Assembly (NCBI GenBank): GCA_964291215.2
Contig: OZ219790.1
Span: 64,001 to 128,000 of the forward strand
Source: Alphaproteobacteria bacterium
GTDB taxonomy: Bacteria; Pseudomonadota; Alphaproteobacteria; MPNO01; UBA830
Direction of reading: 5' to 3'
DNA length: 64,000 bases
The notes beneath the pieces were generated by a model. It was not told the origin of the DNA, did no database searches, and saw only the letters and a list, made by a program, of their open reading frames with translations. Made by a program: the position numbers and the translations under genes. Shown here piece after piece: positions 2,901 to 35,190 of this stretch (position 1 is its first letter; each line of letters opens with the position of its first letter).

Positions 2901-3770
2901 TAACAAGCGATATGTCCGGTGGATGTAACATGCGATCTGTCCGGTTCAGATGCTTCAAAAATGAGGAAGCCGATGAAAGAGTGTTACAGGAATTACGGAT
3001 TATGAAGTTTGAAGAGTTGTATTCACGAAGGCGGGCGAAGCAGTTGAGCCAGTAGCAGGCCGCCGAGATTCTTGGTGTATCGGTGCGTCGCTGGGAGGAG
3101 AGGCGGAAGGAGCGGAAGGTCTTTATGGCAAGCGCCTTGGCCGTCTGGCTGGCAACCGCGTTCCGGTCGATACAGTGACGGAGGTTCTGGAGTTGTTCGA
3201 CACCCGGGACTACACGGCCAGGCATTTCCACGAGAAGCTGGTCAAGGACCACGGGTTCACGCACAGCTACAACTGGGTGCGCCTGACGCTTCAGGCCAAC
3301 GGCCGGACCAGAGCGGGTGCGCATCGCCGCAAGCGTGCTCCGGGCGGGCATGATGGTGCGGCTCCACTCACGAATGGGCGCCCGGACAGTCGTGGGATCT
3401 GACCATGCCACCAGCGAGATCTGCTCGGCCTTCTTCGTCCCCGAAGAGGGCACGATGAGCACCTTTCAGCGCATCCAGGTTGAGGCCAAGGTTCTGTTCG
3501 CTTTACGCCGATCGGGGGTCGCACACACGCCGGAAGCCGGCGGCAAGGTCGACAAGGACAAGCTGACCCAGGTGGGCCGGGCGCTCCGCATTGAACTGAT
3601 TCCCGCCTATTCGCCTGAGGGCCGCTCGGAGCGCATGTTCGGCACACTGCAGAAGCGTCTGCCGCAGGAATTGCGTACACAGGGCATCGAGACGATGGAC
3701 GAAGCCAATCTCTTTCTCAAGGATGTCTTCCTGCCCGATCACAACACCCGGTTCATGTGCAAGCCGGAAG
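2901..3770 (+). pseudogene. Degraded ISNCY/IS481-like DDE transposase
   Basis: QAAEILGVS HTH, HFHEKL, IPAYSPEGRSERMFGTLQKRLPQELR; stops and frameshifts; truncated by an IS66 end at 3771. Confidence 0.75.
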
Positions 3771-3937
3771 GTATCTACTCACCCCTAGTTGGTTTCTGAT
3801 TGGTCGTAGTGCTCGTTGATGATGTCTGCGGCTTTTCCGTCGAGGACGATCTGGGTTGCGACGTGATGATTGTAGCCGAGTGCCGCCATGGAGGTGAGGT
3901 AGCTTGAGCCCCGGCACCATGCTTTTGCGTGGAGCGG
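3771..3937 (-). mobile_element. IS66-family right-end fragment
   Basis: Begins GTATCTACTCACCCC; matches the 3' end of the full copies. Confidence 0.85.
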
Positions 3938-5457
3938 GTAACTGCTCACCCCCTGGTTCCGGCTTGATGTCGGGGTAGAGCAACGAACGGGTTTTCGTGG
4001 AGATTTGACACTGCAGGCCGATTCGTTTAGTGGTGGTAATCGAGAACGACGGGGACCGCCAGTGGGCTACTTTGGATCGAAGGCGACGAGCGGGCTGTGC
4101 CAGCTGCTTCCGGGGCTCCAGCCCCCGCATGATCTGTATGTGGAAACGCATCTCGGAGGCGGCGCGCTGATGAAGCGCAAGGCCGGGTGATGGCGACGGG
4201 CGGCGCGCGAGGAGTTCGAAGCGGCCAAGGCGCTGCGTGCGGCCGGCAAGGTGCCGAAAGAGGCCGTGATCCGCGTCTTCGTCATCCTGCTCGACATCCT
4301 CATCGTCGTCCTTCTGGAGAAGACCACGCACGAGCCGGAACTCCGGTCTGCCGCCGTCACAGACGGACAAGAGCGTGCCGGGAGCAAGGGCCCGAAGCCA
4401 AACCGGCAGATGGGCGACAACCTGCGCAAGACTATCGTCGAGGAGACGGTCGCGGCCTGCGACGCCTGCGGCGCCGACATCGACGGCCCCGTCGATCGGG
4501 AGCGCCGCGTCCTCTATGACATCGTGTTCGAGGTCGTCGAGCGCCGCGTCGACGTCGAGGAATGCCCGAAGTGCAAGGCCCGAACCAAGGGCCGGTTCCC
4601 CGACAACATCCCGTGCAGTACGGCATCGACATCCAAGCCCTCGTCATCAACCTGCTGGTCGCCCAGATGCTGTCCCTGCGCCGTCGCGCTCGTGCAGGCG
4701 ATCTCCGGCATCAAGCTCTCCGAGGCCTCGGCTATGCTTTCACGATGTGTCATGGGAGGAGGCCGCCGTGGCGCACCTCCTGCAACGCCCGATGTCGATG
4801 ATTTCGGATCAACAGTAAGTGGCTCCATGTCGTGGGACCCTGACGTGCAAGTTCCCGCACCGCAAGCGCGGGCAAGAGATCGGCCCGTGCTACAAGGGCG
4901 TCCTGGGCCTCGTACATGGGCCAGTGTAGCCACCAGTTGTGCGGCAGCCACCTGCTGCGCGAACTGACCTTTGTCGTCGAGGCTACCGCTGGGCGCGACT
5001 GATGAAGAGCCTGCTCCGCGAGGTCTGCCACAAGATCAACAAGAGCGCATCCAAGACCCTGAACGACGCCGGGCGCAAGCGCTACCGCACCATCAGGGCG
5101 CCAGGGAACTGCCCGATATCCCGCCGCCGCCGAAAGGAAAACGTGGACGCAAGTCCGACGCGCACAACCTGCACGAACGTCTCGTGAAACACGAAAACCT
5201 GCGCTTCACAGACGACCCCGATGTCAGCTTCACCAACAATGCCGGAGAACAGAAGATCAGGATGGCAAAGGTCAAGGTGTCCGGATGCTTCCGCTCCACG
5301 CAAAAGTATGGTGCCGGGGCTCAAGCTACCTCACCTCCATGGCCGCACTCGGCTACAATCATCACGTCGCAACCCAGATCGCCCTTGACGGAAAAGTCGC
5401 AGACATCATCAACGAGCACTACGACCAATCAGAACCCAACTAGGGGTGAGTAGATAC
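3938..5457 (+). mobile_element. IS66-family (ISBst12-like) element copy A, transposase degraded, with Dam-like MTase remnant
   Basis: TIRs GTAACTGCTCACCCC / GTATCTACTCACCCC; CxxC ribbon, CGSHLLREL, FTNN..EQ..RMAKVK..SGCFRS; no matching TSD. Confidence 0.85.
4062..4190 (+). pseudogene. Remnant of a D12-class (Dam-like) DNA adenine methylase inside IS66
   Basis: GYFGSKATSGLCQ...PPHDLYVETHLGGGALMKRK; present in all four full copies; TTGACA-N17-TAGTGG upstream. Confidence 0.65.
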
Positions 5458-5801
5458 AATTTATTTTAGCGAGAACCCTTACCTGAACCGGCGGAGACGC
5501 CCCTGTGGTGAGCTCCGTGGAGCTTTGGCTGCACATGCGGCCTTGACGGAACAGAGTTCCGGCCAGCCAAGCCGCGCCAGTGACTTGGCATAACGGCAAA
5601 GTCGAATGTCTACTCTTGTGCCGGCAATCGCCTGTGCAACTCAAGCCCTTGCATAAGAATCGTGTTGGCATGGTTGAAATTCTCAGGCTACCCCTGAAGC
5701 TGGTACGCCCATTTCTCGCCGTGAAAAAGATTACTCCGAAAACGGTAGGCGATGATGAGCAAAGCTGCCGCGATCTCAAAATGCTCCGCAGCGTCATTCC
5801 C

Positions 5802-7066
5802 TAGTAGTCTAACATTATTGGATTGACGGATATAGTGACTTCAGTTTCGTCCGGGCATCCTTCGTCGTGAAACGCCAGTCGACAGTGACATCGGCCGCAT
5901 TGCGGCGCTCGACCCACGCCATGGTCTCCCGCAGCATGGTGTCGCGGTCGGGAATGCGTCGCCGAAGGCATTGCCGCGACAGCGCACCGATCTCGATCTC
6001 GGCCATGTTGAGCCAGCTTCCGTGCTTCGGCGTATAGCGAAACTCGAACCGCTTTCGCACCCGCCTCCTCGGGCTCGAAGGCTTCATACAGCGACTGTGC
6101 GTGTTCAGATTGTCCAGCAAGATCTTCCTGTCGGGGGAATGGTCGTCGGCAAGCTCCTGGATGAAGTGCGCCCAGTCCCGCGACGGTCGGTGACTTTCAC
6201 CGTGCGCCAGTTCTCGTTGGGCGCAAAGGCCATGAAGAGGTTGGCCGTGCCGTTGCGCTCATATTCATAGTCGACCACCTCCGGCTGACCGGGGGATGCG
6301 GGTTTCCTGCTGCCGGCTGGTCTCAGCACCTCGTCCCTGGCAAAGTCCCGCTGATAAATGTCAAGCACATCCTCCATCGCCGCCACGAGCTGTGCGCTCC
6401 GGTGCGGTGGAATGCACCAGTACTGCTTCAGCCACGGCTTGATCTCCTTTTTTTTAGCGTCTTCCTGACCGTCTCTTCCGAAATGCTCTCGACGATCTCC
6501 ACCAGACGGCCGGCAAGCAGCGTCCACAGCCCTCGGGCGGGGACGAGCAGGCCAGAGCGACCAGCTTCGCCTCCATCGCCCCGTCCAGCCGTTTCGGCCG
6601 ACGGTTCACCTGCTCCTTGCGGCTGAGGGCGGCGTCCAACCCCTCCAGGACGCAGCGCTTGCGCAAACGCTCGACCGTCGCCGTGCCGATGCCCAGCCCT
6701 TGCGCAATGTCGGCATCGACAGACCGAGCGCCGTCGCGCCCCTCGTCGGCCAACATCAGGATTTGTGCCCGGCGCCGACGCCAGGCGGCCCCGGTGCCGT
6801 CGACGATCGCCTTCAGATCCTGGCGCTTCTGCGCTGAAAGGGTCACGCGGTAGAGCTTCCTGCCCCGAGAGTTGGCCATATGCGCCGCTCCTGTCATTGC
6901 GCCGAAGACCTGCGGGCATGCCCGTTGTCCGGACCTGCACATGGGGCTGCGGCTGCCTGCCTGTTCGGCATCTGCCCGTGTGGATGGCACTGTCCGGATT
7001 CCAACGAACGCCGACACGGAAATACTACCCACAAAAAACCATCAATACAATGCCGGTGGACTACTA
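5802..7066 (-). mobile_element. IS630-family element, degraded
   Basis: CTAG at both ends (5801-5804, 7064-7067); DNLNTH, YTPKHGSWLNMAEIE, DYEYERNGT motifs. Confidence 0.9.
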
Positions 7067-7135
7067 GAACCTTTCGTGCGAGAGTAGGTTGGTCGCCGTT
7101 CCGGAGGTTGAGATGATCGAAATGATAGGTAAATG

Positions 7136-8635
7136 GTATCTACTCACCCCTTGTTGGGTTCTGATTCATAGTGCTCGTTGATGATGTCTGCGGCTTTTCC
7201 GTCGAGGGCGATCTGGGTGGCGACGAGTGGGTTGTAGCCGAGTGCGGCCATGGAGGTGAGGTAGCTTGAGCCCCGGCACCATGCTTTTGCGTGGAGCGGA
7301 AGCATCCGGACACCTTGACCTTTGCCATCCTGATTTTCTATTCTCCGGCATTGTTGGTGAAGCTGACGTTGGGGTCGTCTGTGAAGCGCAGGTTTTCGTG
7401 TTTCACGAGACGTTCGTGCAGGTTGTGCGCGTCGGACTTGCGTCCACGTTTTCCTTTCGTCGGGATGTCGGGCAGTTCCCTGGCGCCCTGATGGTGCGGT
7501 AGCGCTTGCGCCCGGCGTCGTTCAGGGTTTTTGGATGCGCTCTTGTTGACCTTGTGGCAGACCTCGCGAAGCAGGCTCTTCATCAGTCGCGCGGTAGCCT
7601 CGACGACAAAGGTCAGTTCGCGCAGCAGGTGGCTGCCGCACAACTGGTGGCTACACTGGCCCATGTACGAGGCCCAGGACGCCCTTGTAGCACGGGCCGA
7701 TCTCTTGCCCGCGCTTGCGGTGCGGGAACTTGCACGTCAGGGTCCCACGACATGGAGCCACTTACTGTTGATCCGAAATCGTCGACATCGGGCGTTGCAG
7801 GAGGTGCGCCACGGCGGCCTCCTCCCATGACGCATCGTGAAAGCATAGCCGAGGCAGGTTGCCTCGGAGAGCTTGATGCCGGAGATCGCCTGCACGAACG
7901 CGACGGCACGGCGCAGGGATAGCATCTGGGCGACCAGCAGGTTGATGACGAGGGCCTGGATGCCGTACTGCACGGGATGTTGTCGGGGAACCGGCCCTTG
8001 CACTTCGGGCATTCCTCGGCGCGGCGCTCGACGACCTCGAACACGATGTCATAGAGGACGCGGCGCTCCCGATCGACGGGGCCGTCGATGTCAGCGCCGC
8101 AGGCGTCGCAGGCCGCAACTGTTTCCTCGACGATGGTCTTGCGCAGGTTGTCGCCCATCTGCCGGTTCGGCTTCGGGCCCTTGCCGTTGCTTCCGGCACG
8201 CTCTTGTCCGTCTGTGACGGCGGCAGACCGGAGTTCCGGCTCGTGCGTGGTCTTCTCCAGAAGGACGACGATGAGGATGTCGAGCAGGATGACGAGGACG
8301 CGGATCACGGCCTCTTCCGCCACCTTGCCGGCAGCGCCGCGGTCTTGGCCGCTTCGAACTCCTCGCGCGCCGCCCGTCGCCATCACCCGGCCTTGCGCTT
8401 CATCAGCGCGCCGCCTCCGAGATGCGTTTCCACATACAGATCATGCGGAGGCTGGAGCCCCGGAAGCAGCTGGCACAGCCCGCTCGTCGCCTTCGATCCA
8501 AAGTAGCCCACTGGCGGTCCCCGTCGTTCTCGATGACCACCACTAAGCGAATCGGCATGCAGTGTCAAATCTCCACGAAACCCCGTTTGTTGCTCTACCC
8601 CGACATCAAGCCGGAACCAGGGGGTGAGCAGTTAC
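7136..8635 (-). mobile_element. IS66-family element copy B with 8-bp TSD
   Basis: Same TIRs as copy A; TSD GGTAAATG at 7128-7135 and 8636-8643. Confidence 0.92.
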
Positions 8636-8886
8636 GGTAAATGTACCGTCGCGATAGTACCTGTTCCAGAAGTGCGCCAACTGTGGTTCGAACGATTTCT
8701 CGGTGATCAGATGGACATCTGCCCACTGTCGCGCGATCGCGACAATGGCAGCTACATCGCCGCGTTTGTTAAGCGCCTCGGATTCGAACAGGCTCCACAG
8801 AAACGAGAAATGCTTGACAGCTTCTCGCTCTTCCTGAGAAAGTGCGGGAAAATCCGGCGCATACCTTTCAAGCCAATCCATCGGGG

Positions 8887-11538
8887 TCATTGCAGCCAGT
8901 CGATCTTGTCCTGGCGCTGCTTGATGTCTTCGACCCAGCTCCGCAGCGTCGTGATCTCATTCTGAACGGCGTCGGGTTTCGGCAGCGGCGGATTAAGGGC
9001 ATCCGCCGAACTGTGCAACAGCGTCGAACAACGCCCGTATGCCTGGCGCATCCCGGTACAGTCATCCATCATCAACGTCGTGACCTTGGCCAAACCTTTG
9101 GTCTCCACTTTGTTCGACAGGCGCTTGATGACCGGCCCGACAGCTTCCTCGACGGCACGCTCCCAAGTCCAGCGCAAGCGTTTTTGCAGCGCGTCCACCG
9201 TTCTTTCCCATTTGTCGTGATCGCCGTTCTCATACAGGCCCTTCTCATTATCGAGCTGCTTCTGCATGCCCTCAATAACCTTCTCGATCGGCTGGGCACG
9301 CGCGGGCGGGTCCTGCTGGACAAATCCAACGTAATCGTCGGTCCGGGTGACAGAGCGAAAAGCCACATGAGTACCCTTGTCGCGGCATGCTTGGTCGAGC
9401 AGGAAGAGGAAGGCGATATCGTGCGTCAGCACGATGATCTGCCGGTGTTTCCCTTCGTCGGCCAGCCGTTCCGCTACCGCATCGCGGTGCATGTGATCAA
9501 GCGACGATACCGGGTCGTCGAACACGATCGCGGAGCGACTTTCGGTCGTCGCGAGTTCGGCCAGGAACGCCGCCAGCGCGACGCAACGATGTTCCCCCTC
9601 GCTCAGAATCTCGCCGACACGGGCGTCCGGCTTGCGGATCAGGCTGACACGAAAATGCGGAACGCCATAACTCGTCTTCTCCTTGCGCAGCTCGATCGCC
9701 AGCCCGGCGACGCCGAACTTGTCGATCTCTTTCGAGAACTGGGCGCGCAGCGCGTTTGTGACGAGCTGCTCGGCGAGCTCACCGCTCTTTGTCGTGATCC
9801 GGTTCGTCGTGGTGTCTTTCGACACGGCATCGAGCACGGCGCGCTTCTTCCGGCGACCAATCTCTGCGATGACATCTTCCTGTATCACTACCAGCCATTC
9901 GCGGTCGGCCAACTCTTCGAACTCTGCGCGCATCTGCTTATGTTCTTCGGACTCGTCCTCCGCACGCAACGCGCTGATTCGTGCCAATAGAGCGGCGCTG
10001 TGCACTGCGATAAGTTCGGAGGGCCACGCCTCGGCCACCGGAAGCGGATCGGCTTCGTCCCCCTTCGTGTGATTGCGTAGGATCTCGCGCAGCCGGCACT
10101 TCAGCGTGACGGCAGCCCGGCGGACAGACACCGCAAGCTCACCATCGTTTAACTCGTCGCGGACGAAGGCGACAGCCGCCGGAATATCGCCGGCTGGGAC
10201 ATCGGAATCGACCAGTTTATCCAACGCGGCGCGGTACGCCGCTGCGGCTTGTTCTTCCCTCCGCTTGGTTTCGTCCTTCACGAAACCCTCGAAACGCGCA
10301 AGCCGGTCAGCCGCTTCTTCGTCGAGTTCCTGCTGGCACAGCACGCAGTGCGCACCGTCCACAGTCACAGGAAACGGCCTATCCGGGTATGCCTGCTGCT
10401 CCGAATAGCTTCGCGCCGCCTCCCAGAGCCCGCGCCACACATCGGAGCCGACATCCGGTAGCGGCTCATCGGCGAAGAGGTCACCGGCGGCAGCCATGGC
10501 GGTGGCCTGTGCCGTTCGGTGCGCCTGATACAACGCCGTAAGGCGGCTGGCTTGTGCGTCACTAACCGCCGTGTGTAAAGCCTCAAACGCCGTATTGACC
10601 GCGTCGAGCCGGTTCTTCAGTGCCTCGACTTGGCGCACCACCTTGGCAGGGTCGGTGCCCAGGTCGGTTTTCAGCGTGCCAAGCCGCACCTTCTCCTTCT
10701 CGTCGAGCGTCGCTAGGTCGCGAACGTCCTGTTCCTTCGTTTCACCGTTGAGTCCCGTGATCAACTTGCCGACCGTCGTATTGTCATGGCATTCCGGCTT
10801 CGTGATCGCCTCGGGAGTCTGATGTTTTAGTTCGCGGAGTTCCGCGGTGATGCGCCTCTTGATTATCTGGCAGGCTTCGGCGAGTCGCTCTAACACGCGC
10901 ATCGGGAACGGCGTATAGGCGACATCGTTCAGCTCATCGACATGCACGTTGGCGGTGCGACTATCGAACACGCTGATCGAGGATAAGAGCGGATCGCCAG
11001 GGTCGTCCGCTGTCCAGTTCTCGCTCTTGTTGTGCCCATTGGCGCTGAAGTCGATTACTGCCCTTTGTTGCTCAGTCTTCGTTGCGTAGATATTCGGCAG
11101 TATTAGGTCGCCCTTCGGTGGCGTGCGGGCCCGGCAGACCTTCTTCAGAACACGCGCGTAACCGGACTTGCCCGACCCGTTATCACCGTACACGACCGTC
11201 AACCCGGCTTTGTCGAAGGTTAGGCGTTCGCCGGCTTTCAGTGCATTGATGTTTTCGGCGTCATGAATGGCCCGAAGATTGACGGCAGTTGTGGCCACCT
11301 GGGGATCGGGGATGTGTTCGGCGGCGATGGGAACGCTGCCTTTGCCGTTGCTCTTGCATAGAGCCGTTAGCTCGTCCAGGTCAGCATCTTCCAGCATGTC
11401 CTTCGTGCATAGGCGGCGCAGTGCATCGCGCTGCCATGCCGGGCAGTCTTTCGACTAGGCCAAGATATCGGCCAGGGCTAGGGCCTCGCTGGCGATCTCT
11501 TTCTGCTGATTTTCTAAGTCTTCGGCTATGTCAGCCAT
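8887..11538 (-). CDS. RloC/Rad50-like ABC ATPase with zinc hook and HEPN-like C-terminus; amber stop at codon 28
   Basis: Walker A GDNGSGKS, hook CVLC, signature LSEGE, Walker B FDDP, H-loop THD, C-terminal LRWTWERAVEE...RCSTLLH; N-terminus ILA*SKDCPAWQRDALRRL (TAG 11457-11455); an 836-aa ORF remains from ATG 11397. Confidence 0.8.
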
Positions 11539-11613
11539 TTCCAATCAACCTGTTTCGAGTTATTGCACGCCCTGAGCTGTCCTGGTGTGCCGCGCTGGCA
11601 TCGCTTGGAACCC

Positions 11614-16084: not shown

Positions 16085-16091
16085 CCGGTGC

Positions 16092-18835: not shown

Positions 18836-18839
18836 ACAT

Positions 18840-19232
18840 TCCGAAGAGCTGCACGGACCGTGCGCCGCTTCAGCGTCTCGGCGTATCCGTGGACGAAAGG
18901 CTCGTCACCGTCGCTACCGTGACGGCATTCCAGCCCGGATGGGCCGATTCGTGCAGCGGCACCGATAATGTTCTCACGGAGGACCAATCCTGTTTCTTCG
19001 CGGTCCACATGGTACGCAACTGCCGGAAAAGCGTCCGGGCAGGATCATTGACGAAAGGCACCTTCGCCAGCACCTCCGGGCGTCGTGCGGCGGGAGGCGC
19101 GGCACCGGCCATGTCTCCATAAGCGCCAGAACAGACCGTGCTTCGGTCGCGGTCACACGGCACTGCGATTCGATTGCAAACTGTCCGGCTATGGAGCAGG
19201 ATTGGATGATCGTCCACCGGCATTGTGCCCAT
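18840..19232 (-). pseudogene. Possible degenerate response-regulator receiver
   Basis: VDDHPIL start and weak receiver-like segments in shifted frames. Confidence 0.25.
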
Positions 19233-19478
19233 GGAGGCGGCGAGGCAAGAAAGGGCCGGAGAGGCAGAGCATGGCTAGGGGAACACCCACACGACGATTC
19301 CACGCTGCCAATCCAGCGGCGACCGGCGAGATTTTTCGGTCTGCGTCGCGCTGCAATCGTGCCGCCAAGGCTCAATGAGACCTTCTCGGCGCGAAAAATT
19401 GCGATCAAGGGGCGATCTGTGATGACGCGAGCCCCAACGCACTCGGATTTCGCGTCTCGGAATCAGCATGGGATCGCC

Positions 19479-20945
19479 GTGGGAACACCCAGGAAACAGC
19501 AAGGCGGCGCGACGACCGGGCGCGGCTCAATGGAGGCGGCGGAATACAAGCATGTCGTCCTCGGTCTGATCTTCCTGAAATACATCTCCGACGCCTTCGA
19601 GGAGCGCCATGCGGCGGTGTTGGCCGAATGGGGCGCGGACGCCGCCGAGGACCGGGATGAGTATGCGGCCGAGAACATCTTCTGGGTGCCGCCGGAAGCC
19701 CGCTGGGAGCATCTGAAGGCGCAGGCGCGGCAGCCGGCTGTGGGCCAGGCGATGGCGGCGGTTGAGCGGGAAAATCCCGCGCTCGAAACTGTGCTGCCGA
19801 AGGACTATGCCCGCCCCGCCCTCAACAAGCAATGGCTCCGCCAGCTCATCGACATGGTCGGCAACATCCGGGTGGGCGATGCGGCGGCGCGCTCGCGCGA
19901 TGTGTTGGGCCGGGTCTACGAGTATTTCCTGTCCCGGTTCGCGAACGCCGAGGGCAAGAAGGGCGGCGAGTTCTACACTCCGCGCTGCGTCGTCCGGCTG
20001 CTGGTCGAGATGCTGGAGCCGTACCGGGGGCGGGTTTACGACCCGTGCTGCGGCTCGTCCGACATGTTCGTGCAATCGGTCGAATTCATCCGCGCCCACG
20101 CCACCGGCAATGGCGGCCGGATGCGCGGCGACATTTCCATCTGGGGCCAGGAATCCAACTACACGACATGGCGACTGGCAAAGATGAACCTCGCCATCCG
20201 CGGCATCGAGGGCCGCATCGCCCATGGCGACAGCTTCCATAACGACCGCCACCCCGACCTCAAGGCCGACTTCATCCTTGCCAATCCGCCGTTCAACGTG
20301 AAGGACTGGGGCGGCGAGCGTCTGGTCGACGACAGGCGCTGGCAATACGGGACCCCGCCGCCGCGCAACGCCAACTTCGCCTGGGTGCAGCACATGGTCC
20401 ACCATATGGCGCCCGGCGGCACGGCAGGGATCGTGCTTGCCAACGGTTCCATGTCGTCGGCCCAGTCGGGCGAGGGCGAGATCCGCCGCAACCTGGTCGA
20501 GGCCGGCCTCGTGGACTGCATGGTCGCCCTGCCGGGCCAGCCCTTCTACTCGACGCAGATTCCGGCCTGCCTGTGGTTCCTGACGCGGGACCGCGGCAAC
20601 GGCCGGTTCCGCGACCGGCGCGACGAAATCCTGTTCGTCGATGCCCGCGCGCTGGGGCGCATGGCGGACCGCACCCACCGCGAGTTGACGGACGAGGACA
20701 TCGCCCGCATCGTCGGCGCCTACCACGCTTGGCGCGGCGCGGCGCTGGCCGAGGTGCGCCAGCACGGCCATGTACTCACCCCCGGCCGCTATGTCGGCGC
20801 GCCGCCGCAGGAGGACGACGGCGAACCCTTCGAGAACAGGATGAGGCGCCTCGCTGCGCAGCTGCGCGAGCAGCAGGCCGAGGGGGCGCGGCTGGACGCG
20901 GCGATCGAGAAGAACCTCCAGGCGCTGGGGTTCAGGGGGAATTGA
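19479..20945 (+). CDS. hsdM: Type I R-M methyltransferase subunit with apparent in-frame deletions (possibly inactive)
   Basis: [33 protein letters not shown]; segments usually present (LW..ADAL; after AWRG) are missing; no hsdS or hsdR in the window. Confidence 0.85.
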
Positions 20946-22060
20946 TGCCGCCCGTCCGCTACCATGCTGGCCGCTTCCCGCCCGAAGACCGGATCGACTG
21001 GCGCAAACTGATCCCCCATATCGGCCCCGCGGCCGCGGCGCTGGCGCGTTACGACGGGGTACTGGCGGTGGTTCCGAATCCCAGAGTTCTGCTCGCGCCG
21101 CTGAGCACTCGAGAGGCGGTACTCTCGTCGCGAATCGAGGGAACCCGGGCCACGATGGGCGAAGTGCTGCAATTCGAGGCCGGCCGGCCGGCCGATTCGC
21201 CGACGCACCACGACGACATTCACGAAGTGCTCAACTACCGCGCCGCCATGCGCCAGGCAGAAGAGGCGCTGGAGACGCTGCCACTCTCCCAAAGGGTTAT
21301 TCGGGAGGCGCACGCAGTATTGCTGCGCGGCGTGCGGGGCCAAGGGAAGTCGCCCGGCACATACCGGCGGGTCTCCAACTGGATCGGCCCGCCCGGCTGC
21401 ACCGTGGACGAAGCGCGGTTCGTGCCGGTCGAGGCAGACAGGCTCCTCGAAGCCATGGACGCATGGGAACGCCACCTCCATGCGGAAACGCCCGACAGGC
21501 TGGTGCAACTGGCTGTCCTTCACGCCGAATTCGAGGCCCTGCACCCCTTCCTCGACGGCAATGGACGCCTCGGACGTATGCTCGTGCCGTTGTTCCTGTG
21601 GCAGGCCAACCAGATCCGTGCGCCCATGTTCTACATCAGCGCCTACTTCGAGGCGCACCGCGACGCCTACTACGACGGCCTGCTCACCGTGTCCCGCGAC
21701 GACGACTGGACGGGTTGGTGCCGGTTCTTCCTCAAAGCCGTCAAGCTACAGGCCGAGGACAATCTGGCTAGGGCGCAAGGGATTGTCGAACTCTACGACA
21801 CGATGAAGGGTCGTGTGGTCGGCCTGACCCGGTCCCAGTACGCCATCTTCGCTCTGGACTGGATCTTCGGACAGCCGATCTTCCAAAGCACCGACTTCGT
21901 GTCCCAGTCGGCGATCCCGGCCCCCACGGCGCGGCGGATTCTCAACCTCTTGCGTGAAGCCGGCATCCTCGAGACCATCATCGAAGGCCGGGGCCGTCGC
22001 GCCGCTGTTCTAGCGTTTCCCGAACTATTGAATATCGTGGAGGGTGGGAAGGAGTTTTGA
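20945..22060 (+). CDS. Fic-family protein
   Basis: SSRIEG inhibitory motif; [12 protein letters not shown]; TGATG overlap with hsdM. Confidence 0.92.
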
Positions 22061-22742: not shown

Positions 22743-24476
22743 CTAGTCTGAAGTTCCAGAGCCGATCAGACGTAAGTACTTGATAGAAATGACATTCGAT
22801 ACATTTCAGCGGTCTGGGTACACTATGGCTTCACGCCCAGGAGCTTGAAAGCCCTTCTCTGGAGCGGCGTGGGCCGTGTGGTGACCGGGAAGGGTTCGGC
22901 GCCCGCAAGGCGGGGCGCCACGGTGTTGCGGGTGGCAAGATCGCCGATGAGGGTGCGGAAGCTGTGCCCCCTCCGGGCGTCCTTTTCGTGGCCGCCTTGG
23001 CCCGGGCGCTCGCCGAGACTTCTGCCGGCGCCACGACGGACGGCCGCCTTCGGCATCCTCGTCGTCGAACAGCATGGGCTTCAGTCGCATGTGCCATTCG
23101 ATGTAGTAGGCGAGCATGCACAGGAAGACGCGGACTCGGGGTGCGGTGGTAGACGGGGCGCACCTTCAGGTCCTTGAGGCTGCGGAAGGTCCGTTCCACG
23201 GAGCTCAACCGCTTGTAGGTCCGCACCGTGCCGGGACCGTCGAGCTCGCTCTGCGGCAGGCGGATCACGTAGAGGAGCTGGGCCTCGGCGGCGATGGCAG
23301 CCGCATCGCGCCCATAGGTGAAGACCCCCTCGTCGTCGATGGACCACGTGAAATGCTTGGCCATCCTGCCGATGACCTTCCGCTCCCCGATCTTCCCGGC
23401 GCCCTTGAGACGGCGCTGGTCTCGCCGTGTCGCTGCGGCAATCGGTGCGAGCAGGGCCTCGGTGGCCTCGAGCAGTTCCTGGCGCTTCCGGTCCTCGGCC
23501 AGCAGCGGGTTGCGGCAGAGGCGCTCGCCGGGATACGCATCGCTGGTGATCTCCACCAAGTCCCTCTCGTCGAAGAGCGACATCTCGACATCGCCGGCCT
23601 CCACCAGGGAACGGATACCCCTCAAGGCGCTGGCCCGCAGGCTTCACCTCCTCGCGGGCCTCGGTCAGCATCCCCCACCAGCACCACCTTCGCCAGGGAG
23701 AACCGCTCCTGCAGCGTGGTGATCTGCGAGGACAGCGTCGCCGGGTGTTGCCGGGGAACACCGACACCCGTCCCGGTCGCACAGAAGGCCGACTGCAGCT
23801 TGCCCTTCTTGCCATCCCGGGAATGACCTCGCCTGGCCAAGGGGCACCCCTCCATCCACACGGAAGTCAGGAGCACCAGGCAGCCTTCTTCGAGGTGCCG
23901 CCAGGGGATCCTCTCCTGACGTTCCAGGAGCCGTAGAGGGCGTCCTCGTCCATCTCCGCATCGAGGAGCTCGCCCAGAGTGCTGACCGCTGTGGCCATCC
24001 CCCTGGCCAGCTTCGAGGCGGGCTCGAGGATGCGTGCCACGATCATGGCGAGAACCTGATCGCGCTCGGGAGAAGGCTTCGGGTCGATCCGCCGGTCCAG
24101 TTTCTTCAGGGTTCCCAGCACCGCGGCCACATGGGGTAGGGAGCGGACGAGGCGTCGTCGAGACCTGCGGTTCCTCCCTTGAGCAGAATGCGCAATCCCT
24201 CGATGAGAGCGGGCTTGGAAAGGTTGGCGAGGGTGCGCTTCTTGACTGCTCCGGCTTTGCGCTAGGACTCGCGGAGCAGGATGGCGGGCGGGGACGAGCG
24301 CTTGGGGACGGATTCGATATACATGGCTACTGCATATAGGCGCAAGATCCATGGATGTCAAGCACCGAAAACCGTATTACATGGGTACATTCTGACGCAC
24401 GAAAAATCCGACAAACCACGCTGCATCAATGACTTGACGTGCATTTCAGCCGGAATTTTCTGGAACTTCTGTCTAG
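22743..24476 (-). mobile_element. IS1634-family element copy 1, degraded
   Basis: Ends CTAGTCTGAAGTTCCAG / CTAGACAGAAGTTCCAG; YIESVPKRSSPPAILLRES, GHSRDGKKGKLQ, VE..FRSLK. Confidence 0.85.
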
Positions 24477-25552: not shown

Positions 25553-25631
25553 TTAAGCCGAAGTTCCAGAGCCGATCAGACGTAAGGGTTTGTCACCAAA
25601 TGATCGAATCCGTGTATCTACTCACCCCTAG
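25553..25631. mobile_element. Orphan IS1634 end followed by the terminal 18 bp of an IS66
   Basis: CCGAAGTTCCAGAGCCGATCAG, then GTATCTACTCACCCCTAG (25614-25631). Confidence 0.75.
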
Positions 25632-27336
25632 TCCGAAGTTCCAGAAGATTCCGGTTGAAATGCACGTCAAGTCATTGATGTAGCGTGGTTTATCGGATTT
25701 TTCGTGCGTCAGATTGTACCCATGTAATATTATGTTGGATGCTTGACATCCATGGATCTGCCGCCTATAGTCATGTATATCGAATCCATCCCCAACCGCT
25801 CGTCCCCGCCCGCCATCCTGCTCCGCGAGTCCTGCCGCGAAGCCGGAACGGTCAAGAAGCGCACCCTCGCCAACCTTTCCAAGTGGTCGCCCGCTCTCAT
25901 CGAGGGATTGCGCATTCTGCTCAAGGGAGGAACCGCAGGTCTCGACGACGCCTCTTCCGCTCTCTTCCCCATGTCGCCGCGGTGCTGGGAACCCTGAAGA
26001 AACTGGACCGGCGGATCGACCCGAAGCCTTCTCCCGAGCGCGATCAGGTTCTCGCCATGATCGTGGCACGCATCCTTGAGCCCGCCTCGAAGCTGGCCAA
26101 GGGGCTGGCGACAGCGGTCAGCGCCTTGGGTGAGATGCGGAGTTGGACGAGAATGCCCTCTACGGCTCCTGGAACGTCAGGAGAGGATCCCCTGGCGGCA
26201 CCTCGAAGAGGGCTGCCTGGTGCTCCTGACTTCCGTGTGGATGGAGGGAAGAGCATGCCCCTTGGCCCAACGGGGTCATTCCCGGGATGGCAAGAAGGGC
26301 AAGCTGCAGTCGGCCTTCTGTGCGACCGGGACGGGTGTCGGTGCGGGTGTTCCCCGGCAACACCCGGCCACGGTGTCCTCACAGATCGCCACGCTGCGGG
26401 AGCGGTTCTCCTTTGCGAAGGTGGTGGGGGACCGGGGGACCGAGGCCCGCGAGGAGGTCAAGCCTGCGGGCCAGCGCCTTGAGGGGCATCCGTTCACTGG
26501 TGGAGGCCGGCGACGATGTCGCTCTTCGACGAGAGGGACCTTGTGGAGATCATCAGCAATGCGTATCCCGGCGAACGCCTCTGCCGCAACCCCCTGCTGG
26601 ATCGGGCTCGCAAGCGCCAGGAACTGCTCGAGGCCACCGAGGCTCGCACCGATTGCCGCAGCGACACGGCGCGACAAGCGCCGCCTCAAGGGTGCCGGGA
26701 AGATCGGGGAGCGGAAGGTCATCGGCAGGATGGCGAAGCACTTCACGTGGTCCATCGACGATGACGGTGTCTTCACCTATGGGCGCGATGAGGCTGCGAT
26801 CGCTGCCGAGGCTCCTCTACGTGGTCCGCCTGCCGCAGAGCGAGCTCGACGGTCCCGCGCGCCTACAAGCGGCTGAGCTCCGTGGAACGGGCCTTCCGCA
26901 GCCTCAAGGACCTGAAGGTCCGTCCCGTCTACCCGAACCCCGAGTCCGCGTCTTCCTGTGCATGCTCGCCTACTACGTCGAATGGCACATGCGACTGAAG
27001 CCCATGCTGTTCGACGACGAGGATGCCGAAGGCGGCCGTCCGTCGTGGCGCCGGCAGAAGTCTCGGCGAGCGCCCGGGCCAAGGCGACAACGAAGAGGAC
27101 GCCCGGAGGGGGCACAGCTTCCGCACCCTCATCGGCGATCTTGCCACCCGCAACACCGTGGCGCCCCGCCTTGCGGGCGCCGAACCCTTCCAGGTCACCA
27201 CATGGCCCACGCCGCTCCAGAGAAGGGCATTCAAGCTCCTGGGCGTGAAGCCATAGTGTACCGAGACCGCTGAAATGTATCGAATGTCATTTCTATCAGA
27301 TACTTAGGACTGATCGGCTCTGGAACTTCGGGCTAG
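25628..27336 (+). mobile_element. IS1634-family element copy 2, degraded
   Basis: Inverted near-copy of 22743-24476; CTAG-bounded. Confidence 0.85.
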
Positions 27337-28046: not shown

Positions 28047-29566
28047 GTATCTACTCACCCCTAATTGGGTTCTGATTGGTCGTAGTGCTCGTTGATGATG
28101 TCTGCGGCTTTTCCGTCGAGGGCGATCTGGGTGGCAACGAGTGGGTTGTAGCCGAGTGCGGCCATGGAGGTGAGGTAGCTTGAGCCCCGGCACCATACTT
28201 TTGCGTGGAGCGGAAGCATCCGGACACCTTGACCTTTGCCATCCTGATCTTCTGTTCTCCGGCATTGTTGGTGAAGCTGACATCGGGGTCGTCTGTGAAG
28301 CGCAGGTTTTCGTGTTTCACGAGACGTTCGTGCAGGTTGTGCGCGTCGGACTTGCGTCCACGTTTTCCTTTCGGCGGCGGCGGGATATCGGGCAGTTCCC
28401 TGGCGCCCTGATGGTGCGGTAGCGCTTGCGCCCGGCGTCGTTCAGGGTCTTGGATGCGCTCTTGTTGATCTTGTGGCAGGGAGCAGGCTCTTCATCAGTC
28501 GCGCGGTAGCCTCGACGACAAAGGTCAGTTCGCGCAGCAGGTGGCTGCCGCACAACTGGTGGCTACACTGGCCCATGTACGAGGCCCAGGACGCCCTTGT
28601 AGCACGGGCCGATCTCTTGCCCGCGCTTGCGGTGCGGGAACTTGCACGTCAGGGTCCCACGACATGGAGCCACTTACTGTTGATCCGAAATCATCGACAT
28701 CGGGCGTTGCAGGAGGTGCGCCACGGCGGCCTCCTCCCATGACACATCGTGAAAGCATAGCCGAGGCAGGTTGCCTCGGAGAGCTTGATGCCGGAGATCG
28801 CCTGCACGAGCGCGACGGCGCAGGGACAGCATCTGGGCGACCAGCAGGTTGATGACGAGGGCTTGGATGTCGATGCCGTACTGCACGGGATGTTGTCGGG
28901 GAACCGGCCCTTGGTTCGGGCCTTGCACTTCGGGCATTCCTTGATCTCGGCGCGGCGCTCGACGACCTCGAACACGATGTCGTGCGGCGCTCCCGATCGA
29001 CGGGGGCGTCGATGTCGGCGCCGCAGGCGTCGCAGGCCGCGACCGTCTCCTCGACGATAGTCTTGCGCAGGTTGTCGCCCATCTGCCGGTTCGGCTTCGG
29101 GCCCTTGCCGTTGCTCCCGGCACGCTCTCGTCCTTGTCCGTCTGTGACGGCGACAGACCGGAGTTCCGGCTCGTGCGTGGTCTTCTCCAGAAGGACGACG
29201 ATGAGGATGTCGAGCAGGATGACGAAGACGCGGATCACGGCCTCTTCCGCCACCTTGCCGGCCGCACGCAGCGCCTTGGCCGCTTCGAACTCCTCGCGCG
29301 CCGCCCGTCGCCATCACCCGGCCTTGCGCTTCATCAGCGCGCCGCCTCCGAGATGCGTTTTCACATACAGATCATGCGGGGGCCGGAGCCCCGGAAGCAG
29401 CTGGCACAGCCCGCTCGTCGCCTTCGATCCAAAGTAGCCCACTGGCGGTCCCCGTCGTTCTCGATTACCACCACTAAACGAATCGGCCTGCAGTGTCAAA
29501 TCTCCACGAAAACCCGTTCGTTGCTCTACCCCGACATCAAGCCGGAACCAGGGGGTGAGCAGTTAC
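28047..29566 (-). mobile_element. IS66-family element copy C
   Basis: Both TIRs present; same Dam-like remnant. Confidence 0.88.
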
Positions 29567-29842
29567 CCTGCACGAACGTCTCGTGAAACACGAAAACCTG
29601 CGCTTCACAGACGACCCCAACGTCAGCTTCACCAACAATGCCGGAGAACAGAAGATCAGGATGGCAAAGGTCAAGGTGTCCGGATGCTTCCGCTCCACGC
29701 AAAAGCATGGTGCCGGGGCTCAAGCTACCTCACCTCCATGGCCGCACTCGGCTACAGCCCACTCGTCGCCACCCAGATCGCCCTCGACGGAAAAGCCGCA
29801 GACATCATCAACGAGCACTACGACCAATCAGAACCCAACTAG
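29567..29842 (+). mobile_element. IS66 3' fragment cut at its subterminal CTAG
   Basis: Ends AACCCAACTAG, followed directly by IS630. Confidence 0.8.
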
Positions 29843-30534: not shown

Positions 30535-33500
30535 GTGCGCCAGGCAAACTGGTGGAATGTGGCCGGGTGCAAGTCCCGGCAGGAAGAGAGGCTAATTTCT
30601 CCGTGAACCATGCGTCGTGAGGCGAAGCGTTGGGGAGCGGCAGGTCAGGCTATTGAGCCACGAGATGCTTTGAAACCGGAGTGCCGAGGTCGTGGCCGAA
30701 GGCAACGAGCCGCGTTGGTGAGGGGGGCTCCGCGGGGTCCGAAAACCATGGCCGAAGCAGGGACCTGGGAGGTCTTGCCCCTCTGTCGTAGAGGGGCCGC
30801 AGAGGAAATTCCGTAAGCGGATGATGAACGAGAAGTCAGATTCGGCCATAGTGTGTGCTGGGCAGCGCCCAGATCAGGTGGGTTCAAGTCCCACTGGCGC
30901 TCGGGTAAGGGGCGCCATATCCAAAAGCGGGGGTAATTCCTCGCTGGCCGGGGTGAGCGAATAAGCGACGCCCTAAACGGGCACGAAGTTGGAAACGACG
31001 GAAACTGCCAAGGGAAGAGCTAAGTTGGTTCACTGTCGAGAGACAACCGGAGGGCAGGGTGTCCACCGTGAGGTGGAATCTGAAGGGCCTGCGGAGAAGT
31101 ACCGGGCCGTAATCGAGGGCCCATGATGAATCGGTCGGCCAAAGACGGGGTAAGGTCGAGCCGGCACTATGGCGGCGAAGGCGTTCTTACTCACCCGTCG
31201 CACCAAGGTGTTTGCGAACGGCGGAAGATCTGGACGTGACCCCAGGAGGGCTCGTCGTGTTCCCGGGTGGCACCGGGATAACGGCCCCTATAAGCCGAGA
31301 GGCGAACTGGGAAAGGATGCGCGGCGAGCAATCGGACAACCGAATAGTACCACAAGCCCGGCGAAAGCCGGGTGACCGCGCGAGCGGCGACCGGGTGGGT
31401 CGGGGAAGGCGGTTGGCAGAGGTGGTTGGTGAGAGACGGTGAAGGAGCGAGTAAGGATCATGACGCGGACAAGTTCCATGAGCCCGGACGTCATGGGCCG
31501 AGGAGACTGGTTCACTAGCTCAACCTGACGGGAGAAAGGAAGGTCCACTCACTGAAGGTGTACAAGCGGAAGAATCTTGAGGTGGCCTGGGAGAAGGTCA
31601 AGCGCAACCGCGGTGCCGGTGGCGTGGATGGAGAGGACCTGGCGGCGTTCGAGGCATCGCTTGATGCGAATCTCGATCGCTTGCACCGAGAGTTGCGGGA
31701 CGGTGATTACGTACCGCAGCCGGTTCTCCAACGCCTGATACCCAAGGCGGGCCAGCCGGGGAAGCTACGTCCTCTTGGCATCCCGACGATTTACGATCGG
31801 GTGTGTCAGCAGGCGCTGCTGAACCGGCTGGAGCCGATCTTCGAGCCGATTTTCGATGATGCCAACTTCGGTATCGGCAAGGGAGGTCCGCCCGCACTAC
31901 GCAAGATATGGAAGGAGAGGGCCGGGAGTGGGTTGTTGACGCGGATTTTTCTTCGGATCCGTGGGCCACGCGAAGCTTCTTGAGCTTGTGAACCAGCGCG
32001 TCTCGGATGGCCGGGTGTTGGGCCTGCTCCGGCAGATGCTCACGGCCAGCGTGGTGGCTGAAGGAAAAAGGCTGCCGGGGTACTCCACAGGGCGGTGTTG
32101 TATCAGCGCTGCTCAGTAACATCTTGCTGACACCGTTTGATTGGGAAATGCGGCGGCTATCGATTGACTGCTGATGACTGGCTGGTGACGTGCGCGAGGA
32201 AGCTCACGCGGCATTGGCCAGACGGATCCTGGCCAAGTGACCCTGAATGCCGGGAAGACCCGGACCGTTCACATCAGGCACGGGTTCGAGTTCCTCGGCT
32301 ACAAGATCAAGCAGGGCAAGAAGCCACTCCGGTTGCACGCCTCGAAGATCAAGAGCGGGGTGAGCGGGAGGACACGCTATGCGGTTCCCCGTGCGAAATC
32401 GATCCAGCACTTCAAGGACCAGATCCGCCAGCGCACCCGGCGCAAAGCTCCTGTCAGTACGCAGGAGTTGATCGATGAGATCAATCCAGTCATTCGGGGT
32501 TGGGGCCAATACTACTGCAAGGCCCACATCCGCAAGCTCTTCCACCAGCTTGACGGCTGGATCGTTCGGCGGCTTTGGTCGCATCGTCGCAAGCGCTGGC
32601 GCAACGCCGGCTGGAAACAGCTGCCGGAGCGCAAGCTGAGTACGGGCTTGTTCGCTTGTGGTCTCTTCCTTGAACCTTCGACGAGACACCTCTGTGAAAG
32701 CGGCTTACGGGAAAGGGCCGTTTGAGCGGCGGACGGAGGCCAGCCCTTCGGGGCGCCTCCTCCGACCCGACACCGCTGAAGGCGGCGAACAAGGGCTCTC
32801 CGGAGCCTGCGGAGTTGCTGGAGGGAAGGGCAATGCGGTTGGCCCGCGCCGCGCGCAGAAGCGGGTCACAGGCGGCTGAACGCAGGTAGCGAAGAGGAAC
32901 CCGGAAGAGCGTCTTGTGGCGCTACTCCACCACGTGATGTTCTGCGTTCCATTCCTTGAGGAAGGATGCGGCGGCGGGGCGTTGTGTGGCAAACGTACGG
33001 GGTGGAACTGCCTGCACGCCCGTGTGCACAGGGGCGGGCGCCTCCGGGGTCTGCATTCCCAAGGAGGGGCAACTTGCCTCGGACAAGATTCTTCAGCGGG
33101 CGGTGTGATTCTGGTGCCGCGAAACGGAGTTCCTCGGTTCCGGCCGGGGCGCATCATGCGCCGTCACGGTGGAACGGCGGAAGGTCAACTGGATCGTTGA
33201 CGCCCGTGGGTTCTTCGACAACCGCGACCATCTGGTTGCGATGCTCGGGAAACGGATCGGGGGGTCTGATCATCAAGTGACCCCGGCGTCATGGAAGGGA
33301 CCGACTGGCAAGGGAACACCGCAAGGGGCGACGCCCTGCCTTGCGAACCTGCACTACGTGCGACTGGTTCCAGAACCACTGGCGCAAGCGGGACACGATC
33401 ATTATGCGGACGACTTCGTGTGCGGCTTTCAGAATCTGGGCGACGCTGGGACCTTGGGGAGAGACTGGCCCACTTGAACTGCACCCGGAAAATCATCGAG

Positions 33501-33932
33501 TTCGGTCGGTTTGCCAGAGCGAACCGCCGGAAGCGTGGACAAGACGTTCGACTTCCTCGGCATGACGCACTTCTGCGAACAGACGAGGAAAGGCAGGTTC
33601 AGGGTCGGTCGCAAACGGGCACCCTGCGGCGGATCAAGGAGGCCTTGCGCAAGCGGTGGCACGATAACCGGCACGAAACGGCCAAGTGGTGAGTTATCAA
33701 CGGCTGGCTCAACTACTACGTTGTTCCGGGAAGCAGCCTGCAGAAGTTCATACACCAATGCAAACGGCTGCGTGCCCTTCGGCGACGCCCCCAAAAAGAC
33801 TTCACCGGGGACACAGACACCCTCACCGCTGCCCACTGAGCCCGTGGCCAAACCAGCGCCTTGTCGTCAGGGGAGGAGCGAACAGCGCACGTCCGGTTCT
33901 GTGCGGGGGGTAACCCGGTTCCCTACCGCGAT
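30535..33932 (+). mobile_element. Group II intron (outer) with degraded RT/maturase at ~33100-33850
   Basis: 5' GTGCG; 3' ...GTCCGGTTCTGTGCGGGGG...CCCTACCGCGAT; RT motifs GTPQG, YADD, FDFLG. Confidence 0.85.
30853..32771 (+). mobile_element. Group II intron (inner) with degraded RT/maturase at ~31550-32700
   Basis: 5' GTGTG; 3' ...GAAAGCGG...TTTGAGCGGCGG...CCGACCCGAC; GAGGVDG, RPLGIPTIYDRVCQ, TPQGG, FEFLG, INPVIRGWGQYY. Confidence 0.85.
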
Positions 33933-35190
33933 GGTCGTCTGTGAAGCGCAGGTTTTCGTGTTTCACGAGACGTTCGTGCAGGTTGTGCGCGTTTGCGATG
34001 CGTTTTCCTTTCGCGGGATGTCGGGCAGTTCCCTGGCGCCCTGATGGTGCGGTTGCGGTCGGCCTCGTTCAGGGTCCTGGATGCGCTCTTGTTGATCTTG
34101 TGGCAAACCTCGCGGAGCAGGCTCTTCATCAGTCGCGCGGCAGCCTCGACGACGAAGGTCAGTTCGCGCAGCAGGTGGCTGCCGCTGGTGGCTACACTGC
34201 CATGTACGAGGCCCAGGACGCCCTTGTAGCACGGGCCGATCTCTTGCCCGCGCTTGCGATGTGGGAACTTGCACGTTCCGACGACATGGAGCCACTTGCT
34301 GTTGATCCGAAATCGTCGACATCGGGCGTTGCAGGAGGTGCGCCACGGCGGCCTCCTCCCATGACGCATCGTGAAAGCATGGCCGAGGCCTCGGAGAGCT
34401 TGATATCGCCTGCACGAGCGCGACGGCGCAGGGACAGAATTTGGGCGACCAGCAGGTTGATGACGAGGGCCTGGATGCCGTACTGCACGGGATGTTGTCG
34501 AGGAACCGGCCCTTGGTCCGGGCCTTGCACTTCGGGCATTCCTCGGCGTCGACGCGGCGCGACCTCGAACACGATGTCGTGCGGCGCTCGACGGGGCCGT
34601 CGGCGCCGCAGGCGTCGCAGGCCGCGACCGTTTCCTCGACGATGGTCTTGCGCAAGTTGTCGCCATCTGCTGGTTCGGCTTCGGGCCGTTGCTCCCGGCA
34701 CGCTCTCGTCCGTCTGTGACGGCGGCAGACCGGAGTTCCGGCTCGTGCGTGGCCTTCTCCAGAAGGACGACGATGAGGATGTCGAGCAGGATGACGAAGA
34801 CGCGGATCACGGCCTCTTCCGCCACCTTGCCGGCAGCGCCGCGGTCCTGGCCGCTTCGAACTCCTCGCGCGCCGCCCGTCGCCATCACCCGGCCTCGCCG
34901 CGAGCATCGCCTGACGCTCACCCGGCGGCATCTTCCGGTACTCCGCCTTGCGCTTCATCAGCGCGCCGCCTCCGAGATGCGTTTCCATATACAGATCATG
35001 CGGGGGCTGAAGCCCCGGAAGCAGCTGGCACAGCCCGCTCGTCGCCTTCGATCCAAAGTAGCCCACTGGCGGTCCCCATCGTTCTCGATTACCACCACTA
35101 AACGAATCGGCCTGCAGTGTCAAATCTCCACGAAAACCCGTTCGTTACTCTACCCCGACATCAAGCCGGAACCAAGGGGTGAGCAGTTAC

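Follow-up and report, generated by a model that had tools for sequence, protein, structure and literature searches.

A 64,000-nt stretch of the genome of an uncultured marine alphaproteobacterium (bases 64001–128000 of contig 1; hereafter the window) carries four relic copies, A to D, of an IS66-type transposable element, which are riddled with small deletions in combinations that do not follow a tree. We found that these deletions peak sharply at 5–7 nt. The lineage accumulates deletions of this size everywhere in its genome, and selection hides the frameshifting ones in genes. Shared polymorphism among the relic copies, together with a rapid decay of linkage, points to a mosaic that likely arose by gene conversion. 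The pattern is a real and unusual mutational signature combined with extreme mixing among copies, rather than a silencing specific to mobile DNA.

The source genome (G000) has a size of 6.15 Mb in two contigs and a G+C content of 64%. The nearest relatives of its methionyl-tRNA synthetase are metagenome-assembled Alphaproteobacteria of the Rhodospirillales type. When the genome was compared with itself at an identity of at least 80%, 2,125,971 of its 6,154,152 bases had at least one other copy, giving a repeated share of ~35%, and 1,159,740 bases were present in at least 20 copies. For comparison, we used four congeners (G001–G004), one public run that contains window sequence and is labelled marine metagenome (X1), and other public runs or samples (X2–X4).

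Deletion size, direction and load in the IS66-type copies

Pairwise, copies A–D differed by 21–40 mismatches and 9–30 gap openings per ~1.0–1.5 kb. Each of the two element ends occurred ~205 times in the genome. With copy C as the query, 404 matching stretches were obtained genome-wide, 89 of which spanned the whole 1.5 kb in one piece (length 1435–1641 nt, median identity 93%). This 89-copy set excludes copies that BLAST split, for example those with a 53-nt segment or a nested insertion. We aligned the 89 copies and used as a reference every column present in at least two of them.

Against this long reference, the copies contained 89 distinct gap events with 2877 occurrences in total. Fifty-four of the 89 events had a length of 5–7 nt, and no event of 2 or 4 nt was found in this family (Table 1). 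A second class at 12–14 nt comprised 11 of the 89 events and may represent two adjacent deletion units. A reading of the window made from its letters only (the sequence-only reading) had described the copies as differing by deletions of 3–53 bp. The deletions themselves are real, but their sizes fall into these two narrow classes instead of being spread over that range. The individual examples given there, namely a loss of 12 nt between CCTTG repeats and losses of CATCGA and AACCTGC (GCAGGTT on the other strand), match alleles in the 89-copy alignment. The 53-bp loss ascribed to copies A, B and C was also confirmed: copy D retains this segment and, when the four copies are aligned, shows 11 deletions of its own.

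Table 1. Gap lengths in repeat families (distinct events), in single-copy DNA (gaps by the genome in which the bases are missing), and in 400-kb portions of two genomes processed by the same pipeline
Length (nt)	IS66-type (89 events)	IS630-type, family B (69 events)	Family C, 24 copies (64 events)	Family E (64 events)	Unique DNA, missing in G000	Unique DNA, missing in G001	G000, first 400 kb	G002, 400 kb
1	8				136	115	713	651
2	0				34	30	343	195
3	4				22	24	163	79
4	0				7	8	102	43
5	11	7	8	10	7	4	251	35
6	27	18	23	17	34	3	470	40
7	16	11	14	16	9	2	145	6
8	1				10	3	14	
9	3				9	0		
12	7							
13	3							
14	1							

The direction of the events was determined by comparison with an intact relative of the element in congener G001. 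The long reference restored colinearity with the transposase of this relative: one stretch of 127 aa aligned in a single frame at 66% identity, where the majority sequence of the copies has at least six gaps. The first 40 aa of the methylase encoded by the relative matched as well. In a site-by-site, frameshift-aware alignment, the long allele fitted better at 55 of 63 sites, worse at 7 and equally at 1, which argues that the events are overwhelmingly deletions. The long allele is thus ancestral at 55 of these sites. An intact 463-aa IS66-family element of the source genome was also tried as an outgroup for polarising the indels but was too distant, as only 100 aa could be aligned at 39%.

Per copy, the medians against the reference were 33 deletions, with a loss of 217 nt, and 28 substitutions. 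Losses of 5–7 nt recurred among the copies at ~55 sites, and at 37 of the 63 non-singleton events the derived deletion was present in more than half of the copies. Deletions were shared more often than substitutions (63 shared and 26 singleton deletions versus 256 and 274 substitutions, p = 9e-5). This excess of shared deletions suggests either conversion biased to the deleted allele or an earlier burst. Overlapping, differing events were found at single sites, with losses of 6 and 8 nt at reference position 588, of 6 and 7 nt at 729, and of 12, 12 and 6 nt at 1007–1013. G:C to A:T transitions predominated among the substitutions in this alignment, accounting for 71 of the 116 shared variants and for 161 of the 274 singletons.

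Besides the IS66-type family, we examined an IS630-type family (B) and two unclassified families (C and E); a fifth seed taken from the window yielded only one full-length copy. All four families showed the 5–7-nt class (Table 1), and a genome-wide histogram of pairwise gaps had its 5–7-nt peak both inside and outside the IS66-type family. The sequence-only reading had attributed the signature to IS630 among other elements, and the IS630-type family shows it (36 of 69 events in the three lengths). It had also named hsdM, but this gene forms one open reading frame (ORF) with near-full domains and was not found broken.

The same size class in single-copy DNA

To the non-repeated parts of the source genome we matched 521,161 nt of G001 (~5.0 Mb), keeping the best non-overlapping matches of at least 500 nt. 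This gave 311,501 aligned unique columns containing 25,293 mismatches. Gaps of 1–4 nt were symmetric between the two genomes (199 missing here, 177 in G001). In contrast, among the 5–7-nt gaps with well-aligned flanks (at least 80% alike), 34 were missing from the source genome and 2 from G001 (binomial p = 2e-8). Only 2 of these 34 involved tandem copies and might be duplications in G001 instead. Gaps missing from G001 fell monotonically in number up to 7 nt and showed no 6-nt peak.

The class specific to the source lineage consisted chiefly of in-frame losses of 6 and 9 nt. Events of 6 nt made up a larger share in unique DNA, where they numbered 25 of 34, than among the repeats, with 85 of 178 (p = 0.008). 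Selection against frameshifts would have this effect by removing 5- and 7-nt events. Core genes had been regarded as clean in the sequence-only reading; this holds for frameshifts but not for the in-frame 6- and 9-nt losses, of which unique DNA has an excess.

A non-tree-like mosaic among the copies

We defined as markers the variants present in at least four copies, which gave 55 deletion markers and 115 single-nucleotide polymorphism (SNP) markers. All four allele combinations occurred in 1101 of 1485 deletion pairs (74%), 4751 of 6555 SNP pairs (72%) and 4611 of 6325 mixed pairs (73%). SNPs are thus no more tree-like than deletions, and the mosaic is not peculiar to deletions. The mean r2 was 0.34 below 5 nt, 0.055 at 20–30 nt and ~0.02 at larger distances, with a value of 0.012 after permutation; linkage was gone within ~30 nt. 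Some minor SNP alleles were present in up to 44 of the 89 copies.

Another 1.4–1.7-kb element is nested at one shared internal position in 22 IS66-type relic copies across contigs C1 and C2 of the source genome, and this composite apparently multiplied as a unit. Of 46 deletion markers that vary among the other 89 copies, 32 were polymorphic within the nested-insertion clade too, with a correlation of 0.87 between the allele frequencies of the two groups. Variation common to both groups was likewise found at 54 of 88 SNP markers and, among the transversions, at 11 of 20.

The window copies showed the same behaviour on a smaller scale. Over the span of copy D, SNPs separated A+C from B+D at 12 sites, A+B from C+D at 1 and A+D from B+C at 0, whereas deletions were shared by B+D at 4 sites, by A+D at 2 and by C+D at 1. 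The sequence-only reading had noticed this SNP grouping, the A+D and C+D losses that contradict it, and the non-tree-like distribution as a whole, all of which are borne out; a loss of GACGAG confined to A+B was not found within D's span. It had left the choice between recurrent deletion and gene conversion. Since SNPs, transversions among them, behave as deletions do, exchange between copies is the economical explanation, and gene conversion, the likely source of the mosaic, would account for it by a single mechanism.

Microhomology and boundaries of the deletions

Microhomology at the 54 IS66-type events of 5–7 nt averaged 2.04 nt, compared with 0.91 nt for random placements, whose sd was 0.18 and whose highest value over 2000 trials was 1.59. 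Yet microhomology was lacking at 13 of the 54 events and limited to 1 nt at 15. Among the unique-DNA losses of 5–7 nt, 14 of 34 had at most 1 nt, and the means across the insertion sequence family and unique DNA were 2.0–2.4 nt versus 0.9 nt by chance. The enrichment is real yet weak and is not the defining feature of the events. The short direct repeats that had been proposed to bound the deletions are present above chance, but only modestly so (28 of 54 events with at most 1 nt). Searches of the boundaries yielded no motif beyond a 3-nt periodic G, and flanking inverted repeats or hairpins gave no signal (stem length 0.43 versus 0.39 by chance).

Descent and transposition of the element

Pfam matches to DDE_Tnp_IS66 above the cut-off were obtained in many copies, including copy B of the window (Table 2). 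None of the 89 copies had an intact transposase frame: the longest open frames crossed mixed frames, none was colinear with the transposase, and the majority sequence of the copies was itself frameshifted, so the element is a non-autonomous relic. No TnpA or TnpB accessory genes were found in it. The intact relative in G001 (L016, G001:C13 1144-3270, minus strand) has two genes, one for a 487-aa IS66-family transposase and one for a Dam-like methylase of 219 aa whose translation shows YFGSK and DPPY motifs. With a methylase rather than the usual TnpA/TnpB, it resembles an IS66-type transposon that carries the methylase as a passenger. Of the methylase gene, the source-genome copies retain nothing beyond codon 40.

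The ancestor of the element was an IS66-family transposon with genes for a Dam-like methylase and a 487-aa transposase. The form that multiplied lacks most of the methylase and any intact transposase, yet its insertion generated 8-bp target duplications; the losses of 5–7 nt in its copies came afterwards. On either side of copy B, at 7128-7135 and 8636-8643, stands the 8-bp duplication GGTAAATG, and the two termini of the element, GTATCTACTCACCCC and GTAACTGCTCACCCC, form imperfect inverted repeats. In the marine metagenome, a related strain that is ~95–97% alike in the DNA flanking both insertions has an empty site at copy B (joint 7127->8636, with 8 letters fitting both sides) and likewise at the IS630-type insertion (joint 5800->7064). 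Both insertions are therefore younger than the split from this strain. The duplication and the empty site at copy B indicate that this family of non-autonomous relics did transpose, and the element was presumably mobilised in trans.

Compared with the IS66 family, the element is alike in its DDE_Tnp_IS66 homology, its imperfect terminal inverted repeats, its 8-bp target duplication and the empty site in a relative. It differs in the absence of an intact transposase from all 89 copies, in the absence of TnpA/TnpB, and in the Dam-like methylase gene of its intact relative.

Repair genes and the search for a cause

The sequence-only reading had suggested an inventory of repair genes as a check and, as a possible cause, a slippage or end-joining mutator. 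In the source genome, MutS (a 981-aa open frame) and MutL were intact and had no stops, and RecJ, XseA, PolA, UvrD, DinB (one Y-family polymerase) and DnaE were present without stops. No Ku domain was detected in the source genome or in the four congeners, although it was detected in the control genome of Bacillus subtilis. A Piwi domain (Argonaute) was likewise absent from the five genomes of the genus and detected in control genomes. A lineage-wide, mutator-like process fits the data, but end joining by Ku/LigD is unsupported, as Ku is absent. A mutator deficient in mismatch repair was rejected, because mutS and mutL are full-length and only 8 of the 89 events are of 1 nt.

One AddA-like frame that looked short is not the orthologue; the true orthologous region, free of stops, can be aligned to its G001 counterpart across 8 kb (92%, 3 gaps). 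The imuB-dnaE2 genes were present in G002–G004 and missing from the source genome and G001. As G001 lacks both these genes and the signature, loss of imuB-dnaE2 alone cannot be the cause. No Y-family polymerase turned up in G001, which is only 93% complete.

Other features of the window

The features of the window are listed in Table 2. The hsdM ORF overlaps a Fic/DOC-domain ORF (495 aa) at the start of the latter, the two together occupying window positions 19191-22060. Large intact genes lie in a row at 37808-51198: their products are an HTH+SNF2/helicase+NOV_C protein of 1188 aa, a DUF1156 methylase-like protein of 1128 aa, an AAA_21 ATPase of 429 aa and a DUF499 protein of 1129 aa. This row looks like a defence island adjoining the mobile-DNA patch.

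Table 2. Mobile-element relics and selected genes in the window
Feature	Position	Strand	Remarks
IS66-type relic copy A	3936..5457	+ (transposase remnant strand)	32 deletions against the reconstructed long form
IS630-type relic, family B	5801..7064	-	HTH_29 and DDE_3 fragments; 47 full-length copies genome-wide
IS66-type relic copy B	7136..8635	-	35 deletions; DDE_Tnp_IS66 match at 7284-7661, - strand
hsdM	19191-20945		One 584-aa ORF; HsdM_N and N6_Mtase domains near-full; apparently intact
Unclassified repeat family C	22743..24476		Strand not assigned; inverted partner at 25628-27336; 24 full-length copies analysed
IS66-type relic copy C	28047..29568	-	32 deletions; query of the genome-wide search
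Partial inverted copy, first 276 nt of the IS66-type element	29567..29842	+	Abuts copy C
Group II intron RNA domain (D1-D4-6)	30570..30747	+	
Weak reverse-transcriptase fragment	31558-31983		Near the group II intron
Unclassified repeat family E	32820..33900		Strand not assigned; adjoins copy D; 46 full-length copies
IS66-type relic copy D	33933..35190	-	Right-hand portion of a copy from a composite subfamily interrupted by a nested insertion

Discussion

We favour, with moderate confidence, an explanation in which a 5–7-nt deletion process acting on the whole genome is combined with short-tract conversion between the ~205 relic copies, the deletions arising from slip loops that escape MutS–MutL. 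Misaligned replication or repair intermediates would give loops of 5–7 nt, and these would pass MutS–MutL, while shorter slips would be corrected, mismatch repair being intact. In Escherichia coli, MutS is blind to loops of ~5 or more bases, and the sharp lower size limit of the deletions would fit such loop blindness. Short-tract conversion between copies would then shuffle deletions and SNPs, possibly with a bias to the deleted allele. In genes, selection would remove the frameshifting 5- and 7-nt losses and leave the in-frame losses of 6 and 9 nt.

Several observations weigh against this explanation. The excess of shared deletions needs an extra assumption, either biased conversion or a past burst. 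At 7 of the 63 polarised sites, the events look like tandem duplications of 5–13 nt rather than deletions, so that the long alleles there may be insertions. The duplication-like sites lie at reference positions 418, 624 and 652–690 (~7 sites), and a minor duplication class of similar size may exist. The per-copy allele combinations that make up the mosaic come from contigs rather than raw reads. In unique DNA, polarisation with a third genome (a 20-kb stretch against G002–G004) worked for 1 of 9 events, and that one was a loss in the source genome; otherwise the direction leans on the asymmetry and the scarcity of tandem copies, which is a weak basis. The gene inventory found no responsible gene and nothing specific to the source genome, and the deletions show neither a boundary motif nor a flanking hairpin signal. 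In addition, G002 (6.1 Mb; C1:1-400000) has a small 5–6-nt shoulder in the otherwise falling gap-size series of its repeats, so the process may not be unique to the source lineage and is possibly present in weaker form elsewhere in the genus. Finally, slippage followed by a repair filter predicts that 5-nt losses outnumber 6-nt and 6-nt outnumber 7-nt ones, whereas the observed order was 6, 7 and 5 nt with a steep drop at 8 nt, for which a length ruler is needed.

Such a ruler is the core of a further proposal, which we regard as possible but less probable: a hitherto undescribed deletion activity with an inherent ruler of ~6 nt would remove 5–7 nt, at times two units, at any place in the genome, and together with deletion-biased conversion of micro-patches among hundreds of insertion sequence relics it would erode ~2 Mb of mobile DNA and trim genes in frame.

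Recurrent, site-specific deletion, in which each copy loses the same 5–7-nt segments at hot spots with no exchange between copies, appears unlikely. The near independence of markers beyond 30 nt, the overlapping yet different events at 588, 729 and 1007–1013, and the correlation of deletion frequencies between two structurally separate groups would all be expected from it. However, SNPs are equally scrambled, and more than half of the SNP markers cross the boundary of the nested-insertion clade, transversions included, for which recurrent point mutation is implausible. The deletion sites also have no boundary motif, and the losses in unique DNA sit at unrelated sequences.

Ordinary subfamily structure is more doubtful still. 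Here, decaying master copies would have spawned the other copies, shared deletions would be inherited, and the decay itself would be normal. This would agree with the high frequency of many derived deletions, with a composite of 22 copies amplified as a unit, and with the empty site and 8-bp duplication as evidence that an already non-autonomous form truly transposed. But it predicts nested, compatible patterns, and nearly three quarters of the deletion pairs show all four combinations, while the nested-insertion clade is itself polymorphic at most of the markers. The 5–7-nt peak, which is also seen in unique DNA, would be left unaccounted for.

We give little credence to an assembly or consensus artefact, in which the deletions, or at least their shuffled combinations, would have been made during repeat assembly or polishing. 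Our tests used contigs of public runs, not raw reads, and in repeats these are short pieces assignable to any copy; mis-assigned reads could also produce the near-full independence of markers beyond 30 nt. Nevertheless, the long alleles match the outgroup protein codon for codon, and the depth in run X2, which was ~40 over unique window parts and ~7,000–10,000 over IS66-type parts, fits ~200 real copies. No 5–7-nt differences from the window were listed in the public-run contigs. Over a 20-kb unique stretch with 7 lineage-specific losses, three samples distinguishable by their SNPs yielded contigs that agreed in length, with no difference of 5–9 nt: X2 had 0 differences, X4 had 7+7 substitutions and no gaps, and the pieces from X3 had 0–4 substitutions and one 1-nt gap (X1 covered this stretch only in small pieces). 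The deletions are thus reproducible across samples. Moreover, neither G002 nor the G001 side of the comparison showed a 6-nt peak under the same pipeline (Table 1).

We consider least probable an active silencing of repeated or foreign DNA resembling repeat-induced point mutation (RIP), as offered by the sequence-only reading, in which multicopy DNA would be recognised (e.g. by guides), cut and repaired with small deletions: the large repeated share of the genome, the deletions riddling all four repeat families examined and the open frames kept by long window genes agree with it, but single-copy DNA has the same lineage-specific size class (34 versus 2), neither a Piwi-domain Argonaute nor Ku was found in the source genome, the cut sites have no motif, and open frames of 463 aa survive in some IS66-family copies of a different type, so that multicopy DNA is not uniformly hit.

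A genome-wide deletion process with conversion among relics, as we favour, has partial counterparts in known systems. In RIP of fungi, C-to-T transitions are introduced only on duplicated DNA. The case described here resembles it in that repeated DNA is heavily mutated while genes look intact, and differs in that the changes are deletions and unique DNA is hit too. As in concerted evolution by gene conversion, variants are common to copies regardless of descent and linkage decays with distance. Bacterial conversion tracts are usually reported to be far longer than ~30 nt, whereas linkage here is lost within that distance, and the copies are not homogenised but ~93% alike. Slipped-strand mispairing, deletion between short direct repeats and Ku-independent end joining share with our case some flanking microhomology and a genome without Ku; however, half of the events have 0–1 nt of microhomology, and the narrow 5–7-nt length is predicted by neither slippage nor Ku-independent end joining.

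A bias towards small deletions is the accepted force behind the compactness of bacterial genomes, and the sizes are generally held to follow a power law in which single-base events dominate. Kuo and Ochman are said to have described such a deletional bias in bacteria in 2009. The decay of bacterial pseudogenes is similar to the present case in that small deletions erode non-functional DNA, partly between microhomologies, and in that Ku/LigD is often absent. It differs from the present case, which has a 5–7-nt peak, no 4-nt events in the IS66-type family, few insertions, and about one deletion per substitution per copy. In a benchmark study of bacterial pseudogenes, sizes followed a power law, the deletions of 1, 2 and 3 nt numbering 131, 44 and 45; insertions (300) were almost as frequent as deletions (396), and microhomology was present at 171 of the 396 deletions (Danneels et al. 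2018; PMC6054270). Within open-access text, supplements being outside the scope of the search, we found no report of a 5–7-nt deletion peak in bacteria.

Neutral DNA that loses almost only pieces of 5–7 nt, at about one per substitution, suggests that a mechanism of mutation or a defect of repair has gone unrecognised. The genome offers rich material for studying this mechanism, with ~200 copies each of several families and in-frame 6-nt scars in genes. If confirmed on reads, the very short range of linkage among copies would be an extreme case of concerted evolution. Mobile DNA can look shredded although the process acts on the whole genome and shows only where selection is relaxed, which bears on any claim of defence targeted at repeats.

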